Sequence record: NC_054912.1
Length of the DNA: 64,000 nt
Reading direction: 5' to 3' (one strand)
Source: Escherichia phage vB_EcoM_F1
The notes beneath the pieces are model-generated. The model did no database searches. It saw only the letters and a program-made list of their open reading frames with translations, and was not told where the DNA came from. The position numbers and the translations under genes were made by a program. Positions 883-9,870 of this stretch are shown in pieces (within the stretch, counting starts at the first letter, position 1; each line of letters starts with the position of its first letter).

Positions 883-1356
883 TTATTTGAATGATTTAAC
901 GTACTGAATAGAACCTTTACTATTCACGAAAGCGATTTTACCATTTTTATTATACATGGTAGCAGTACGCTGATATCCATAAGTTTGCTTACCAGATTGA
1001 TAACCAACTAATGCGAAATTATCTTCACCCATTTTATTCTGTTTAGCGCGAATGCGTTCATGACCATGTGCCATAAGAACCTTAGCATCACCCGTTGCAA
1101 TGGATCTACGAGTTTTTTCATCTTCAACTGTATTAACAAAGTCGTCAAATGAATCAAATTTAGCATGAGATTTATTATACAGTTTTCCATCTACTGCATA
1201 ATTATATCCTTGTACATCCATCTCAACTTCTGTACCATCATCCAATACAGCAGTGATTTTCTGTCCTTTTTTAAATTTCAAAAGATCAGTAAAAGATTCA
1301 GCAATAATTTGAGAATTAATAGCTGCTTCAGTAATAAATTCTTGATATGTTTTCAT
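883..1356 (-). CDS. internal-protein-like head protein with capsid-targeting-sequence-like N-terminus
   Basis: N-terminus MKTYQEFITEAA matches T4 internal protein CTS pattern; position next to lysozyme e as for T4 ipIII; 157 aa (T4 IPIII is longer). Confidence 0.6.
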   Translation of the reverse strand: MKTYQEFITEAAINSQIIAESFTDLLKFKKGQKITAVLDDGTEVEMDVQGYNYAVDGKLYNKSHAKFDSFDDFVNTVEDEKTRRSIATGDAKVLMAHGHERIRAKQNKMGEDNFALVGYQSGKQTYGYQRTATMYNKNGKIAFVNSKGSIQYVKSFK

Positions 1357-1427: not shown

Positions 1428-1958
<531 letters not shown>

Positions 1959-2414
1959 TTAAAAGAGGTTGTTCATTATTCGGTAAAGTGAAGGACCCAT
2001 CACATATTGCCACTGAGTACGAGGAATAAGAGCAAAAGCATCCATCTCTGGAATCATAACGCCATCTTTATTTTCAAAATAAGACTCGCAATGGCAATTT
2101 CTAAACATCTCATGCTCTACTGGAATCGTATAATAAAATAACTGTAAGTCTTTATTACTAGAATATTTAAATACACCTAGGTCTTCTAGAAGGTCTGGAT
2201 TATAATTGCTAAAACCGGTCTCTTCTAAGCATTCTCTTCGTGCTGCATCTAGTGCACTTAAATCAGAGTTTTCTACACGGCCCTTTGGAATATCCCAACG
2301 ATGTGCCATCATTCCAGGCTTACGAGAACCAGTAACCCGACCCATAAATAAATCTTTATCTTCTGTCATAAAGATAATACCAGCTGATAGTGTTTTCATT
2401 TTAATTTCCTGCAT
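1959..2414 (-). CDS. nudE: Nudix hydrolase (NudE/e.1-like)
   Basis: Nudix box GRVENSDLSALDAARRECLEETG; 151 aa; alternative start at second ATG (2399) has a better RBS. Confidence 0.85.
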   Translation of the reverse strand: MQEIKMKTLSAGIIFMTEDKDLFMGRVTGSRKPGMMAHRWDIPKGRVENSDLSALDAARRECLEETGFSNYNPDLLEDLGVFKYSSNKDLQLFYYTIPVEHEMFRNCHCESYFENKDGVMIPEMDAFALIPRTQWQYVMGPSLYRIMNNLF

Positions 2415-2587
2415 TCAGTGATAAAGTTATTTAAATTTTGAGTATATTTCTTTTCATCAAAAATCTTTTGCTGTCTGCGTAACCGCCATGGCATTTCAAT
2501 GAACATACGCCATATTCCTGATAATACTGCTGCTGTAAAAATATTAACAAGTATGGTTAAAAGAACCCAATCTCCTATTCTGTCCAT
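2396..2587 (-). CDS. small membrane protein (one N-terminal TM helix), unknown function
   Basis: 63 aa ORF, ATG start, hydrophobic segment WVLLTILVNIFTAAVLSGIW; C-terminus ECRKLK encoded by the downstream gene junction. Confidence 0.5.
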   Translation of the reverse strand: MDRIGDWVLLTILVNIFTAAVLSGIWRMFIEMPWRLRRQQKIFDEKKYTQNLNNFITECRKLK

Positions 2588-2883
2588 TGGATTTTTATAA
2601 AAAAGTAAAATACGAACGATGATATAGGAAGACTAATGATATACCACAGAAGAACCTTCTTATCTGTGAACCATTCAGCATTCGTTAACTTAGCGCGACC
2701 GTTTTGAATACATACGAACTTATCATCTGTTACAGTAAATGGCTTAGCTGCTTGATACCCCATTCTAAACTCCCTAATTAATCGTTTCTTTGTATCTTCA
2801 GAACAGCCGCTCCAGTCAACTCTATCAACTGAAATGCCATCGTCCCCATCATCTAAATCATACCAGCGAGTTTTTAAAATCAT
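2575..2883 (-). CDS. hypothetical protein with C-terminal TM helix
   Basis: 102 aa ORF, ATG start overlapping upstream stop (ATGA). Confidence 0.5.
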   Translation of the reverse strand: MILKTRWYDLDDGDDGISVDRVDWSGCSEDTKKRLIREFRMGYQAAKPFTVTDDKFVCIQNGRAKLTNAEWFTDKKVLLWYIISLPISSFVFYFFIKIQWTE

Positions 2884-3242: not shown

Positions 3243-3616
3243 CGTGATTCCTTAACAAATTTCATAATTTCATCAAATTCATACGCAGCAAGTTTAAGCT
3301 GATGTTCCTTTTTAATCTTTTTACACTGTGCTTTCCAATCACGTACGCGTTTACGATAATGCCTTCCTTGATACCAGTATCCTACCCAATTTACAGGTAC
3401 TAATAAAAGTGGAACTATTAATGGAAGAATTAGCGTTGCTCCAAATATTACACCAGATTCAATATCAGTCATAACATCTATAACTATTCCGGCAATCAGC
3501 AGAATCACAAATGATACAGCTACCACAGGACCTATTAACACATCAGTAGAAATTATCTGACGCTTTAATTCATACTTCAACGGTTTACTTGGAAGGTATA
3601 GTGATGGTTTTGACAT
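3224..3616 (-). CDS. small membrane protein (two predicted TM helices), unknown function
   Basis: track ORF starts at TTG 3637; first ATG at 3616 preceded by AAGGAA RBS; hydrophobic stretches. Confidence 0.5.
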   Translation of the reverse strand: MSKPSLYLPSKPLKYELKRQIISTDVLIGPVVAVSFVILLIAGIVIDVMTDIESGVIFGATLILPLIVPLLLVPVNWVGYWYQGRHYRKRVRDWKAQCKKIKKEHQLKLAAYEFDEIMKFVKESRCKSQN

Positions 3617-4193
3617 ATTCTCTACATTCCTTAACAAATTTTTCTAGTAATAAATCGCTTTCAAAATTGGGATTTTCTACGAATTTATCAAAAAGATCAT
3701 CAACAATAGTTAAGATATTCTTTTTGCTAAGAATACGTTTATTTTCATGCTTCGTTTCAGAGTCAACTATAAGAGTAAAGAAATATTTCTTTCCCTGAAA
3801 TTTTACCGTAGTATCAATATAAAATAAATTTGACTTTTGTAAATTACGTTTAAACCATGCGTCACTTAAACTATAAACACCGAGATAATCAAAATCGTCA
3901 TTTAAATAACAAACTGTCCATTCAGGAGAAATGAAATCAGTAAATTCAACATCAAAATCACATGTTAATGAATGAATTGATTCAATACTGTTAATAAGTA
4001 TTCCAGGACGTATTAAAGACTTTTTACCTCTGGAAAATCTTCCAGAAAGACTTTCATTAGTTTCATATGAAGAACCCCAATAATAATTACGCCCTTCTGC
4101 CATACGTTTAAGAGCATTTAATAATTGGTCTGGAACATCAACTTGTCTTTGGAACTCTTCAAACATTGAATTGAAATCATTTTGCATTCTCAT
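3585..4193 (-). CDS. hypothetical protein
   Basis: 202 aa ORF, ATG start with GGAG RBS after a GC hairpin. Confidence 0.55.
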   Translation of the reverse strand: MRMQNDFNSMFEEFQRQVDVPDQLLNALKRMAEGRNYYWGSSYETNESLSGRFSRGKKSLIRPGILINSIESIHSLTCDFDVEFTDFISPEWTVCYLNDDFDYLGVYSLSDAWFKRNLQKSNLFYIDTTVKFQGKKYFFTLIVDSETKHENKRILSKKNILTIVDDLFDKFVENPNFESDLLLEKFVKECREYVKTITIPSK

Positions 4194-4214
4194 TTCTATT
4201 TACTCCAAGTAATA

Positions 4215-4228
4215 GGGGCCGAAGCCCC
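4215..4228 (-). other. GC-rich stem-loop (ggggc-cgaa-gcccc)
   Basis: inverted repeat read directly; near-identical 24-mer recurs at 45675-45698. Confidence 0.5.
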
Positions 4229-4234
4229 TTATCA

Positions 4235-4828
4235 TTATTTCAGAGAATTAATGTATTCCTGAACATCGGCAGAGGTAGTTTCAACCCCAGAAATATTACC
4301 ATTAAAGGTTTCAACTCGAGCAAGGGTATCTTCAATATCAACCTTAGTCAGTGCTGCAATTTCAACTACATCATCGGCAGTACTAATTCCAAGGGCATTT
4401 GCCGCACGAGTTTCACGGATATATTCCAATTTAACTGCAAGCTCTTGACGAGCATCATCTAACTCAACTACTTTCTTGGCGATTTCAATTCGCATTTCAG
4501 CATAACCGTCAGCCTTAGTAGTCAACTGCTCAGCTGTTCGACGATATAGTAAACCGAGTTTAGCATGCATTGTTACATCTTGACCTTCGGAAAGAAGTTT
4601 ACGAATTTCACGCTCTTTTGATTCAGCCTGTCGATTCTTTTCGACAATAAGTTCACGAATACGTTTTTCTTCGTTAATAGATTTAACAGAAGCAGTTTTT
4701 AGATCTTTAATTTTATCAAGTAGTTTTGCTGCTGCAGCAGTATACTGTTCTTCAACAGATAGATTTTTAGCCATAGCAGAACCAAGTTTAGTGCGAATAA
4801 ACTCAACAATTTTCTTCAGTGTGTTCAT
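4235..4828 (-). CDS. coiled-coil protein, PspA/IM30-like candidate
   Basis: 197 aa, all-helical composition, N-terminal amphipathic segment [15 protein letters not shown] resembling the PspA N-terminus; own early promoter. Confidence 0.55.
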
Positions 4829-4870
4829 AGTATTTCCTTAGGTTGATTAAAAATTAAAATCTGTGGAAGA

Positions 4871-4900
4871 ATTATATCATGCTATTTAAGAGATGTAAAC
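4871..4900 (-). promoter_or_regulatory. early-type promoter GTTTAC-N18-TATAAT for the coiled-coil gene
   Basis: minus-strand GTTTAC 4900-4895, TATAAT 4876-4871. Confidence 0.5.
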
Positions 4901-5402
4901 TATTTTTAATTTTACAAATTCGTTCAGCTTCTTCAACAGCGGCGGCGATAATGCTTTTAGCTATAGGAGTACTAATACTAGTAGCTTTTACACTTAACAC
5001 GATTTCTTTATCTTTACCAGGCCAACCCCACGATTTTTCACCATGAGTGCCTTTAATTACAGCAGACACCTCAAGTGAGCATCCATTATCACATGTTTTT
5101 ACATTAACAACCCAAGGATCACTTTTCTCAACCGGTTTATCAAACGGTTTATCCCAGTAAATATTAAGAGTACGTGGGACATCAAATTTAGCAGGGCAAA
5201 TCTTAACCGTAAGACCTTCGCTTTCTAGCCAATTAATAAGAGGGCGTTCATACATGCGGCGATGTGGGCTTTGAACTCGACAAGCTTTGTACCCATTGCT
5301 TGCGGCTTCACTAAGCTCTTCTAATACCTGCTTTTGCATTATTGATAAGATACCATCAAAAGATTTTTCGGAAGTTTCATTCAGTTCGGTATAAAGAGAC
5401 AT
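4872..5402 (-). CDS. hypothetical protein
   Basis: track ORF begins at TTG 5417; first ATG at 5402 with GAGGAAA RBS; 176 aa from ATG. Confidence 0.5.
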   Translation of the reverse strand: MSLYTELNETSEKSFDGILSIMQKQVLEELSEAASNGYKACRVQSPHRRMYERPLINWLESEGLTVKICPAKFDVPRTLNIYWDKPFDKPVEKSDPWVVNVKTCDNGCSLEVSAVIKGTHGEKSWGWPGKDKEIVLSVKATSISTPIAKSIIAAAVEEAERICKIKNSLHLLNSMI

Positions 5403-5428
5403 AACAGTTTTCCTCAAATTATAGGCTC

Positions 5429-5963: not shown

Positions 5964-6437
5964 TTATTTGATTTGTTTAGCAGACCAAATGCGGTCTTTA
6001 ATAATTTTTTGGATGTCTTCAACATACTCAAGAGAGTGAGCATGTGGGTTATCTTTGAAACTATAAGCACGAGCTAGTTTTTGGCCTTCAGTTTTGATTA
6101 CTAAAAGCTCTTTAAGGATAGCTTCATATTTGGAGATAATTCCTTTAACAATATTTTTCTCTTGTGCGACTTTAGGATCTGCTTTAGGAGCAGGTTTACC
6201 CGAAGCCTTTGCAAAAGCAGCGCCAGTAGCAACTAAACTTTTCCAGGCCATACTAACTGCATTTCCCGTAAATCCTTCCGCTTTCATGTCGCGTGCGAAC
6301 TGGAATCGTGATTCATCAGAAGCATCTTTGTAAGAATATTTACCCGCTGCAATGGCTGCTTTTGCGACAGCTTGAATTTCGGTGCTAGATGCTTCATTTA
6401 ACACCGCTTCATTTAAAAATTGAGTATATGATTTCAT
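5964..6437 (-). CDS. internal-protein-like protein with capsid-targeting-sequence-like N-terminus
   Basis: 157 aa; N-terminus MKSYTQFLNEAV resembles T4 IP CTS; Ala/Lys-rich; late promoter upstream; flanked by repeated terminators. Confidence 0.6.
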   Translation of the reverse strand: MKSYTQFLNEAVLNEASSTEIQAVAKAAIAAGKYSYKDASDESRFQFARDMKAEGFTGNAVSMAWKSLVATGAAFAKASGKPAPKADPKVAQEKNIVKGIISKYEAILKELLVIKTEGQKLARAYSFKDNPHAHSLEYVEDIQKIIKDRIWSAKQIK

Positions 6438-7273: not shown

Positions 7274-7939
7274 TTAAAATTTCATTTTTCGACCTTTAAA
7301 CCATCCTTCTGGAATTGGGTCAGTTTTCTTAATACGTTTAGAAACTTTTTCATCTAATGAATGAATCCACATCATACCAAATTGGGAATTCTTTTCACCT
7401 TTCTGGTGATTATTTTTAGCGTGAATTTCTTTCATTTTATTAATAGTTTCAAGAGTATGATGCTTATTTAAAAATCTGCTATTATTTAAAAATTTTTCCC
7501 TGTATTCAGGAGTTGACCACAAGCGTTTAAATACATTTGAACCATGTTTACGATATTTTTCTTGAAGTAAAATATCATTTTTAAAACGTGACTTAAACGA
7601 TTTAGCTCCTTTTAAACTAGCGTCTTTCTTCTGGTTTAGCATCTCAGGAATATTTATATGATCCCATCCGCCTTCACCGCCAAGTTTTAAATTATACACA
7701 TCTGGTCTATTTAAAAACTCTTCTGTGACAATATTTTTCTCGGCTTCAAGCATAGATTCTTTATCATCAAAATATTCTAATATTTCTTTAGAAAAATTTT
7801 CTATACCATACCTGTCTTGGGCTCTTTTTAATAATTTACCAGAACCCATATATCCATCATCTAAATTTTCGGTAGAATGCACACCAATATAAATTTTATT
7901 ATTAATTTTATTTGTTATTTTATAAGTGTAATGGAACAT
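7274..7939 (-). CDS. segB: GIY-YIG homing endonuclease (SegB-like) within the tRNA cluster
   Basis: 221 aa; N-terminal GIY-YIG module YKITNKINNKIYIGVH..DGYMGSG; same size and position as T4 segB. Confidence 0.85.
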   Translation of the reverse strand: MFHYTYKITNKINNKIYIGVHSTENLDDGYMGSGKLLKRAQDRYGIENFSKEILEYFDDKESMLEAEKNIVTEEFLNRPDVYNLKLGGEGGWDHINIPEMLNQKKDASLKGAKSFKSRFKNDILLQEKYRKHGSNVFKRLWSTPEYREKFLNNSRFLNKHHTLETINKMKEIHAKNNHQKGEKNSQFGMMWIHSLDEKVSKRIKKTDPIPEGWFKGRKMKF

Positions 7940-7980: not shown

Positions 7981-8052
7981 TGGCCCTGGGTGGAATTGAA
8001 CCACCATCTGGCGATTATGAGTCGCTTGCTTGAACCTTCCAGCTACAGGGCC
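7981..8052 (-). tRNA. tRNA with anticodon CAU (T4 tRNA-Ile position; Met not excluded)
   Basis: manual fold: acceptor GGCCCUG/CAGGGCC, anticodon loop CU-CAU-AA, T-arm GGUGG-UUCAAUU-CCACC; no encoded CCA. Confidence 0.7.
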
Positions 8053-8053
8053 T

Positions 8054-8129
8054 TGGTGCTGATTGACGGAATCGAACCGCCGACATCCTCATTACAAGTG
8101 AGGTGCTCTACCTACTGAGCTAAATCAGC
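8054..8129 (-). tRNA. tRNA-Thr (anticodon UGU)
   Basis: acceptor GCUGAUU/AAUCAGC, D-arm GCUC-AGUAGGUA-GAGC, anticodon loop CU-UGU-AA, T-loop UUCGAUU, encoded CCA. Confidence 0.85.
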
Positions 8130-8136
8130 GAAATTA

Positions 8137-8223
8137 CGGAGGCGATAGGATTTGAACCTATGAGTCGCCGGAGCGACTGCCGGTTTTCAAGACCGGTGCA
8201 TTAAACCACTCTGCCACGCCTCC
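8137..8223 (-). tRNA. tRNA-Ser (anticodon UGA), long variable arm
   Basis: acceptor GGAGGCG/CGCCUCC, anticodon loop CU-UGA-AA, long variable arm, T-loop UUCAAAU; no encoded CCA; 2 nt after tRNA-Pro. Confidence 0.8.
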
Positions 8224-8225
8224 AG

Positions 8226-8299
8226 TCTCCGCGGCAGGATTTGAACCTACGACATTCTGCTCCCAAAGCAGACGCTCTACCAAACTGAGCTACACGGAG
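8226..8299 (-). tRNA. tRNA-Pro (anticodon UGG)
   Basis: acceptor CUCCGUG/CGCGGAG, D-arm GCUC..GAGC, anticodon loop UU-UGG-GA, T-loop UUCAAAU; no encoded CCA. Confidence 0.8.
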
Positions 8300-8309
8300 T
8301 AAATTAAAT

Positions 8310-8383
<74 letters not shown>

Positions 8384-8388
8384 AAATT

Positions 8389-8475
8389 TGGTGCGAGAAG
8401 TGGGACTCGAACCCACAAGGAAATCATTCCGCAGCATTTTAAGTGCTGTGCCTTTACCAATTTGACCATTCTCGC
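8389..8475 (-). tRNA. tRNA-Leu (anticodon UAA), long variable arm
   Basis: acceptor GCGAGAA/UUCUCGC, anticodon loop CU-UAA-AA, long variable arm, T-loop UUCGAGU, encoded CCA. Confidence 0.8.
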
Positions 8476-8476
8476 G

Positions 8477-8549
8477 CTGGGAATAAAGGACTCGAACCTT
8501 TGCATCCTGGAATCAAAATCCAGTGCCTTACCAACTTGGCTAATTCCCA
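8477..8549 (-). tRNA. tRNA-Gln (anticodon UUG)
   Basis: acceptor UGGGAAU/AUUCCCA, D-arm GCCA..GGC, anticodon loop UU-UUG-AU, T-loop UUCGAGU; discriminator G, no CCA. Confidence 0.75.
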
Positions 8550-8618
8550 ATTATTAACAAAGGCTCTTAAGCAAGAACCCTTGATGATAGAGGGTATTAA
8601 TCAGTGCGATATAAGTTA

Positions 8619-8643
8619 ATAATAACAAATAATTCTTAAAGCA
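8619..8643 (-). promoter_or_regulatory. middle-type promoter (MotA box TGCTTTA plus -10 TATTAT) upstream of the tRNA cluster
   Basis: minus-strand ataTGCTTTA at 8637-8643, 12 nt spacer, TATTAT at 8624-8619. Confidence 0.4.
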
Positions 8644-9579: not shown

Positions 9580-9870
9580 TTACAAAAGATTTTTTGCAAT
9601 AATTTTAAGCTGAGCTACTGAAATATGCTTGGCTTTAAACAAAGCAGTTTCTTCAGCAGGGGAGATAACGATTGTAGCACCATCTTTCTTAGCGGACCAT
9701 CCATCACCCAGGTAAACAGTACCTTTGACTTCTTCGCCATCAACCAGACTAATCATTGGTTTACCTTCTCGTCCTTTATTTGCTTTAATAACTTCAGAAG
9801 TAAGAGTAGCTTCGGTAATAGTAGAAACCGGGGTAGTTGTAGTAGAAGTAAATTCTTTAAATGTTTTCAT
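9580..9870 (-). CDS. internal protein I-like head protein with CTS-like N-terminus
   Basis: 96 aa; N-terminus MKTFKEFTSTT..ITE; size and position (between tRNAs and 57B) as for T4 ipI; sequence diverged. Confidence 0.6.
   Translation of the reverse strand: MKTFKEFTSTTTTPVSTITEATLTSEVIKANKGREGKPMISLVDGEEVKGTVYLGDGWSAKKDGATIVISPAEETALFKAKHISVAQLKIIAKNLL

Follow-up and report, generated by a model that had tools for sequence, protein, structure and literature searches.

What does a lytic phage gain from investing early in the maintenance of its host's membrane, when it takes no more than about half an hour to kill that host? The question is raised by gene e.6, which we examined in a 64,000-nucleotide stretch of DNA from Escherichia phage vB_EcoM_F1 (NC_054912.1), referred to below in its entirety as the window. 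In the list of open reading frames (ORFs) of the window the e.6 coding sequence runs from 4235 to 4828 (4235..4828) on the minus strand, starts with ATG and specifies 197 residues followed by a stop codon. These are exactly the limits given in an earlier note on this DNA, which proposed from the raw sequence that the product is a PspA/IM30-like coiled-coil protein. Our analysis supports that proposal in substance: e.6 very probably encodes a diverged member of the PspA/IM30 family, the bacterial branch of ESCRT-III. No lytic phage has been studied better than T4, and still its e.6 gene bears the label 'unknown function'; placement among PspA, Vipp1 and ESCRT-III suggests a concrete and testable function for a gene that over 1,100 sequenced phages have retained.

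The source phage is T4-like, and the ORF corresponds to T4 gene e.6. The same region of the window carries the T4 lysozyme gene (1428..1922), nudE and the e.2–e.8 series, and the name e.6 is given both in the annotated record LR746311 and in T4 (NC_000866, 69312..69905, T4p129). By megablast the DNA of the ORF is 100% identical to that of Escherichia phage vB_EcoM_FN, and 479 of the 506 matching records are at least 95% identical to it. Homologues with identities from 100% down to ∼31% are present in 1105 of 50,697 phage records, and in T4 the gene belongs to the early RNA class and its protein has been detected and assigned to the 'middle' protein class (PMC9697503 supplement); e.6 is therefore a real gene. 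PHROGs assigns the protein to phrog_1203, with the label 'unknown function' that recent genome-wide T4 tables also use.

Homology to PspA, IM30 and Vipp1

The evidence for homology comes primarily from family profiles, of which one (A2) comprises 33 closer members of the e.6 family and a second (A3) comprises 55 sequences, with distant members added at identities down to 18%. In a search of Protein Data Bank (PDB) sequences, A2 already places Vipp1 chains among the top sequences with E-values of 0.5–1, in the same N-terminus-anchored register that is obtained with A3. With A3 the match becomes significant: Vipp1/PspA-family chains are the top eight sequences (E-values of 1e-4 to 2e-3), and the alignments are colinear from Met1 to approximately residue 146 in both proteins. 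The profile search for PspA/IM30 that the earlier note had suggested thus has a positive outcome when it is made with the family rather than with the single protein.

Comparison of A3 with an alignment of PspA and Vipp1 proteins (A4) using hhalign gives a probability of about 87–90.5%, a best E-value of 1.4e-6 and 168 aligned columns, pairing e.6 residues 1–176 with PspA residues 1–171/172. Two points of construction bear on this comparison. A4 draws its two Vipp1 fragments from the HMMER alignments that the A3 search of PDB sequences produced, and the E. coli PspA query retrieved database proteins that are 98–100% identical to it and carry PF04012. The real comparison scores 43.3, whereas reversing either alignment lowers the score to 18 with a probability of 0.9%, and 30 column shuffles give scores of 20.8 or less and probabilities of 2.3% or less. 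Composition is kept in the reversed and shuffled controls, and reversal also preserves heptad periodicity. Since the signal is lost in both, it is not attributable to coiled-coil composition. The earlier note had named the absence of a profile or structural match, with a likeness confined to generic coiled-coil composition, as the outcome that would speak against its reading; both the profile match and the structural match described below extend beyond composition, and the PspA reading consequently stands.

On sequence grounds, the most conventional proof of kinship is a transitive link through two proteins of the e.6 family, P0186 and P0187, which have their closest relatives in putatively Vi1-like phages of Klebsiella, Salmonella and Serratia. 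Both match the e.6 profile over their full length, with E-values of 2.6e-21 and 2.7e-20, respectively, and both exceed the PF04012 gathering score of 33.9 (P0186 with 35.1 bits and P0187 with 39.0 bits), in a match that covers residues 6–146 and profile positions 2–143. The e.6 protein in turn matches P0187 at 48 bits in phmmer, and tblastn with P0187 recovers annotated e.6 genes directly. Taken with the profile comparisons, these results lead us to regard homology between e.6 and PspA/Vipp1 as very likely indeed.

The likeness between the e.6 protein and PspA has been recorded once before. In a 2021 genome announcement, gp163 of phage Metamorpho, the homologue of T4 e.6, is reported as a 99.9% HHpred match to E. 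coli PspA (4WHE_A) (PMC7862958), so that the homology is not new and has a one-sentence precedent. That announcement alone was found to link e.6 with PspA in our literature search, which returned no functional work on e.6, and the text of a paper on how PSP (phage shock protein) systems evolved does not discuss phage homologues. The earlier note had considered such a protein unusual for a phage; it is less so, given that e.6 occurs in over 1,100 phage genomes and that its similarity to PspA was already in print.

Helical architecture of the e.6 model

An AlphaFold2 model of the e.6 protein was built on the 33-sequence alignment and has a mean predicted local distance difference test (pLDDT) score of 72.5. 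Helices are modelled for residues 3–22, 25–80, 86–145, 151–161, 166–173 and 186–196, or approximately 166 of the 197 residues (∼84%), in agreement with the helical product that had been anticipated. The pLDDT values are 84–96 across residues 31–130. A long α1–α2/3 hairpin followed by shorter helices is the arrangement that characterizes the ESCRT-III superfamily, and it is the arrangement found in the model. A Foldseek search of the PDB with this model returns Vipp1 structures as the top eight matches, followed by the archaeal ESCRT-III protein CdvB2. The superposition of the hairpin on 6zvs_A has a root-mean-square deviation of 3.0 Å across 123 columns and a target-normalized template modelling score of 0.70.

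The hairpin is composed of α1 (residues 25–80; 4589..4756, minus strand), which is colinear with Vipp1 residues 26–80, and α2/3 (residues 86–145; 4394..4573, minus strand), which is defined by the model, the hidden Markov model (HMM) alignment and the Foldseek match. In α1 the pLDDT, averaged in blocks of 10 residues, climbs from 70 at the start to 84–96. Residues 81–85, in the SEGQD region, form the hairpin tip and are aligned with the 'TNGEEN' tip of Vipp1 in the HMM alignment. The equivalents of α4 and α5 are short C-terminal helices (residues 151–196; 4241..4378, minus strand) modelled with pLDDT values of 35–71. The closer relatives in A2 conserve the motif LGI..DDV...L..VD and a C-terminal tail of the form (DV)xxY(I/L)xSLK; G147 and Y192 are conserved at 90% or more in all 55 sequences of A3.

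Preceding the hairpin is a predicted amphipathic helix, α0 (residues 3–22; 4763..4822, minus strand), the putative equivalent of H0 of PspA and Vipp1, modelled with a low pLDDT of ∼42. Residues 1–22 carry a net charge of +4. The earlier note had pointed to a resemblance between this segment and the N-terminal helix of E. coli PspA, and the resemblance proves to reflect a true homologous register: e.6 aligns with PspA residues 1–22 from Met1 without gaps, and the hydrophobic positions 4, 7, 10, 11, 15 and 19 coincide. The hydrophobic moment is 0.45 for e.6, 0.49 for E. coli PspA and 0.61 for Vipp1, and the feature is conserved across the e.6 family. N-termini of distant family members are intermediate between those of e.6 and PspA/Vipp1, as illustrated by MSLKSLIKRIFRIAEANVN compared with MGLFDRLGRVVRANLNDLV of Vipp1.

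Distribution and origin

The T4-like phages that carry e.6 infect Escherichia, Klebsiella, Shigella, Aeromonas, Enterobacter and other hosts. A second branch of the family, to which P0186 and P0187 belong, is found in phages of ∼155–160 kb from Klebsiella, Salmonella and Serratia that, by their size and names, are putatively Vi1-like Ackermannviridae. In one of these (locus L002, 6001..6609) and in its relatives, the e.6-family gene that passes the PF04012 threshold lies downstream of uvsX-like and gp41-helicase-like genes, and directly downstream of it is a gene for a 186-residue protein with a hydrophobic N-terminal segment.

The family is compact. It forms 49 clusters in a word-indexed search and, when 1.84 billion representative proteins are searched exhaustively with the HMM, 46 clusters, of which the full-length ones measure ∼195–209 residues. 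No cluster in that exhaustive search is recognizable by length as canonical PspA, and PspA is not bridged by this search alone. Conversely, when the phage collection is searched by tblastn with E. coli PspA, just two unannotated metagenomic 'Bacteriophage sp.' contigs match, indicating that at tblastn sensitivity canonical PspA is essentially absent from isolated phages. The e.6 profile scores 24–28 bits on cyanobacterial Vipp1 and 5–17 bits on enterobacterial PspA. A preference of this kind argues against recent acquisition from the host and indicates that e.6 is an old, diverged lineage rather than a recent capture of host pspA. Members of the PspA superfamily in phages are not unprecedented, given that BFVD contains an annotated PspA/IM30 protein from Acinetobacter phage ME3, which is a weak structural match to e.6.

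A proposed role and its alternatives

We favor, with moderate confidence, the view that e.6 represents a phage lineage of the PspA/IM30/Vipp1 family that has diverged far, and that it serves as a phage-supplied stabilizer of the inner membrane. How it would do so can be put forward more tentatively, by analogy with PspA and Vipp1. The basic amphipathic N-terminal helix would bind the cytoplasmic face of the inner membrane, and the protein would then polymerize by hairpin packing where the membrane is stressed or leaky. The resulting polymer would limit ion leakage and allow the infected cell to stay sealed and energized through the infection cycle, including the phases of DNA entry, holin accumulation, lysis inhibition and attack by membrane-directed host suicide effectors. 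T4 shuts off host transcription, and the host psp operon is σ54-dependent. A phage copy of PspA would be useful in these circumstances because the host psp response is left unable to respond properly. Infection by T4 is in fact accompanied by only weak induction of the host psp operon (PMC12795941).

A number of observations weigh against this view. At the level of homology, searches with the single e.6 protein fail: PF04012 is unmatched in Pfam by hmmscan even at E-values up to 10, the PspA model of NCBIfam is likewise unmatched, and phmmer against the PDB gives no matches. Membership in the PspA/IM30 family is, as far as these searches go, visible only above single-sequence sensitivity. At the level of structure, α0 and residues 150–185 are modelled with low pLDDT, and the N-terminal hydrophobic moment of 0.45 is reached by 14% of shuffled sequences and so is not significant alone. 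The genomic context offers no neighbor of e.6 common to distant family members and no PspB/C- or LiaI-like partner. Finally, transposon sequencing of T4 by HIDEN-SEQ recovered insertions at 43 of 43 sites in e.6, which was called non-essential, and did not report it as conditionally essential with RexAB, RnlAB, the cyclic-oligonucleotide-based antiphage signaling system (CBASS), DarTG1/2 or minimal medium; knockdown by CRISPRi-ART was scored 'Not Fit', without fitness cost. By two genome-wide screens, then, e.6 is dispensable in the laboratory.

Could the PspA-like fold serve to interfere with the host protein rather than to repair the membrane? A mimic of PspA might bind PspF, PspB/C or host PspA polymers, thereby silencing or redirecting the host envelope-stress response, or might decoy PspA-dependent systems, for instance CBASS cyclase conjugation. 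We consider either version improbable. It is true that e.6 shares the α0–α1–α2/3 region, and that the target of the published HHpred match is the PspA(1–144) hairpin fragment crystallized as 4WHE, which we take to be the part of E. coli PspA that regulates PspF. It is also true that the host psp operon is weakly induced by T4 infection, unlike by PhiX174 (PMC12795941), and that in B. subtilis a CBASS cyclase has PspA as its conjugation target (PMC11153139). A mimic would, however, be expected to resemble the protein that it imitates, and the preference of the e.6 profile for cyanobacterial Vipp1 means that e.6 resembles the host protein least. The general shut-off of host transcription explains the weak psp induction equally well, and the HIDEN-SEQ text names 57B/acb1 alone as depleted under CBASS. 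We are similarly doubtful of a dedicated counter-defense function, in which the same biochemistry is kept to neutralize abortive-infection effectors that perforate or depolarize the inner membrane and is irrelevant in laboratory strains free of defenses. A gene that is expressed early, non-essential, located in a variable accessory region and widely retained (1105 phage records) has the usual profile of an anti-defense gene. The T4 HIDEN-SEQ study nevertheless does not report e.6 as a hit with RexAB, which is membrane-depolarizing, or with the CBASS operon tested, and e.6 is not known to block any defense system. Nothing in our analysis separates this reading from general membrane maintenance.

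Far less credible than either is that e.6 is an unrelated coiled-coil or BAR-like protein, perhaps with a scaffolding role or present in the virion as a 'host specificity' or 'tail completion' protein, whose likeness to PspA is compositional. Single-sequence searches do return weak coiled-coil noise only, in the form of sub-threshold matches to USP8_interact, Seryl_tRNA_N, LegC2/C7 and the sll1863 family (E-values of 0.015–0.05), some GenBank records name the product 'host specificity protein', and one phage homologue among the BFVD matches is entered in UniProt as 'tail completion protein'. Set against this are the removal of the hhalign signal by reversal and shuffling, alignments that are anchored at Met1 and colinear over ∼146–170 residues, and the PF04012 scores of P0186 and P0187. 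Neither the sequence-profile match nor the crescent dimer of the BAR family was found for the e.6 protein. Transcription from a σ70-type early promoter is unfit for a late structural gene, and we rejected both labels as automated carry-over, that of 'host specificity' deriving from an automated ACLAME class. An assignment as an Rz-like spanin (PHROGs, E-value of 0.22) was also rejected.

For the phage, early investment in membrane maintenance might keep the cell energized after host shut-off, stabilize lysis inhibition or resist defenses that perforate the membrane, and each of these answers would link the bacterial ESCRT-III field with phage–host conflict. A stronger formulation, which we offer as speculation, credits T4-like and Vi1-like phages alike with an ESCRT-III-type membrane-repair polymer of their own, which would be made within minutes of infection and replace the silenced host Psp response. 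It is an equally speculative corollary that the polymer seals the membrane during DNA entry, during holin build-up or lysis inhibition, or under attack by pore-forming defenses. On this formulation, e.6 would be the first viral PspA with a defined function and would represent a general route by which phages resist membrane-targeting abortive infection.

Promoter and transcript features

The promoter GTTTAC-N18-TATAAT that the earlier note had placed at 4871–4900 is read in the sequence and is, in addition, of the extended −10 type. This strong σ70-type early promoter (4871..4900, minus strand) has its −35 box, GTTTAC(A), at 4900–4895 and its −10 box, TATAAT, at 4876–4871, separated by a spacer of 18 nt; a TG dinucleotide at 4879–4878 lies one base before TATAAT. 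A promoter scanner reads the site as TTTACA-17-TATAAT, with 11 of 12 matches and the TG, and ranks it best between 3500 and 6500. The assignment is also consistent with the early RNA class of T4 e.6. A Shine–Dalgarno sequence, AAGGA (4835..4839, minus strand), is located 6 nt before the ATG and is invariant in the window, T4 and phage SsoM_113.

The −35 box, the TG-extended −10 box and the Shine–Dalgarno sequence are all kept in T4, where another gene lies upstream; the promoter thus travels with e.6. Upstream of the GTTTACA box, similarity is low in the alignment of the window, T4 and SsoM_113. The upstream gene in the window is a 181-residue ORF (4872..5417, minus strand) that belongs to phrog_6869, of unknown function, and takes the place of the unrelated T4 e.7 (phrog_7266). 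Its stop codon lies inside the TATAAT of e.6 and so overlaps the −10 box; the GTTTACA box and the region from the Shine–Dalgarno sequence onward are conserved with T4. This boundary looks like a mosaic junction located at the promoter.

Between the genes e.6 and e.5, just past the stop codon of the former, is a tetraloop hairpin, AGGGGC-UUCG-GCCCCU (4214..4229, minus strand), with a folding energy of −13.1 kcal/mol and a z-score of −2.3. Because the coding strand has no U-run, it is less likely to be an efficient terminator and is probably an element of RNA stability or processing.

Neighboring genes

The earlier note had placed e.6 next to small membrane proteins. Such proteins are indeed encoded downstream, by e.4 (three transmembrane segments), e.3 (two) and e.2 (one), but they are not adjacent: e.5 (3585..4193), which has no predicted transmembrane segment, adjoins e.6 and intervenes, and the membrane proteins begin ∼600 nt further downstream. 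They follow e.6 in close T4 relatives only. In a phmmer comparison of the proteins flanking e.6 in the window with those flanking two distant homologues (L002 and L004), e.6 itself was the sole match.

Two parts of this neighborhood differ in their organization from phage SsoM_113. The longest e.4 ORF overlaps e.5 by 53 nt (3585..3637, minus strand), and the matching region of SsoM_113 is annotated as a single 975-nt 'e.5' gene; the difference may reflect a fusion/fission polymorphism, an alternative start or a frameshift. Likewise, e.2 (2575..2883, minus strand) and a 63-residue ORF just downstream of it (2396..2587, minus strand) match residues 1–103 and 106–166, respectively, of phrog_2203, a membrane-protein family of 166 residues that is represented by a single 489-nt ORF in SsoM_113. 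With two ORFs matching the two halves of the family, a phrog_2203-type gene appears to be split in the source phage.

Three ORFs of the window, at 5964..6437, 883..1356 and 9580..9870 (all on the minus strand), begin with MKSYTQFLNEA, MKTYQEFITEA and MKTFKEFTSTT, respectively, starts that presumably resemble the N-terminal sequences by which T4 internal proteins are targeted to the capsid. The ORF at 883..1356 matches phrog_3155, an 'internal virion protein'. That at 5964..6437, within the e-tRNA accessory region, matches phrog_2280, of unknown function; its product may be an additional internal protein that is injected from the head. A SegB-like ORF (7274..7939, minus strand; N-terminus MFHYTYKITNKINNKIYIGVHS) lies beside a putative T4 tRNA cluster (∼7990..8620) that was placed by T4 gene order.

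Comparison with known systems

ESCRT-III proper (Snf7/CHMP and archaeal CdvB) has no significant sequence match to e.6. Those proteins lack the PspA-type α0 helix and work with a Vps4-type ATPase; no gene for such a partner is evident near e.6.

E. coli PspA (PF04012; 4WHE) belongs to the same family as e.6 according to hhalign and the published HHpred match, and is of similar length (222 residues compared with 197), e.6 being ∼25 residues shorter at the C-terminus. Direct similarity between the two is very weak, as reflected in the low profile scores on enterobacterial PspA. Host pspA is expressed from a σ54 promoter, whereas e.6 is under a phage early σ70 promoter, and the e.6 locus differs from that of E. 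coli pspA in having no pspF or pspBCDE-like neighbors. Among the neighbors of e.6, no psp-related Pfam or PHROG matches were found, and thus no sign of coupling to a PspF-, PspB-, PspC- or LiaI-type anchor. The P0186 and P0187 proteins, at ∼200 residues and with a full-length match to the e.6 profile, share 24–25% identity with the window protein. They exceed the PF04012 threshold, which T4-type e.6 does not, and their neighboring genes differ from those of e.6.

The best profile and Foldseek matches of e.6 are the cyanobacterial Vipp1/IM30 proteins (Synechocystis sll0617 and Nostoc Vipp1; 7O3W, 6ZVR, 8QFV and 9EOM), with which it shares ∼15–18% identity. Unlike Vipp1, e.6 is encoded by lytic phages and is expressed from an early phage promoter. 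The e.6 protein has 197 residues compared with 258–277 in the Vipp1 chains and, by its length, presumably cannot carry the C-terminal H7 extension; in place of the 'AEDPEK' linker of Vipp1 it has 'KN(L/T)S(V/I)E(D/E)Q'. Despite these differences, the two proteins are alike in their basic amphipathic N-terminal helix (predicted in e.6) and in the order and limits of their elements, with H0 at residues ∼1–22, a break at 23–25, H1 extending to ∼80, the hairpin tip at 81–85 and H2/3 extending to ∼145.
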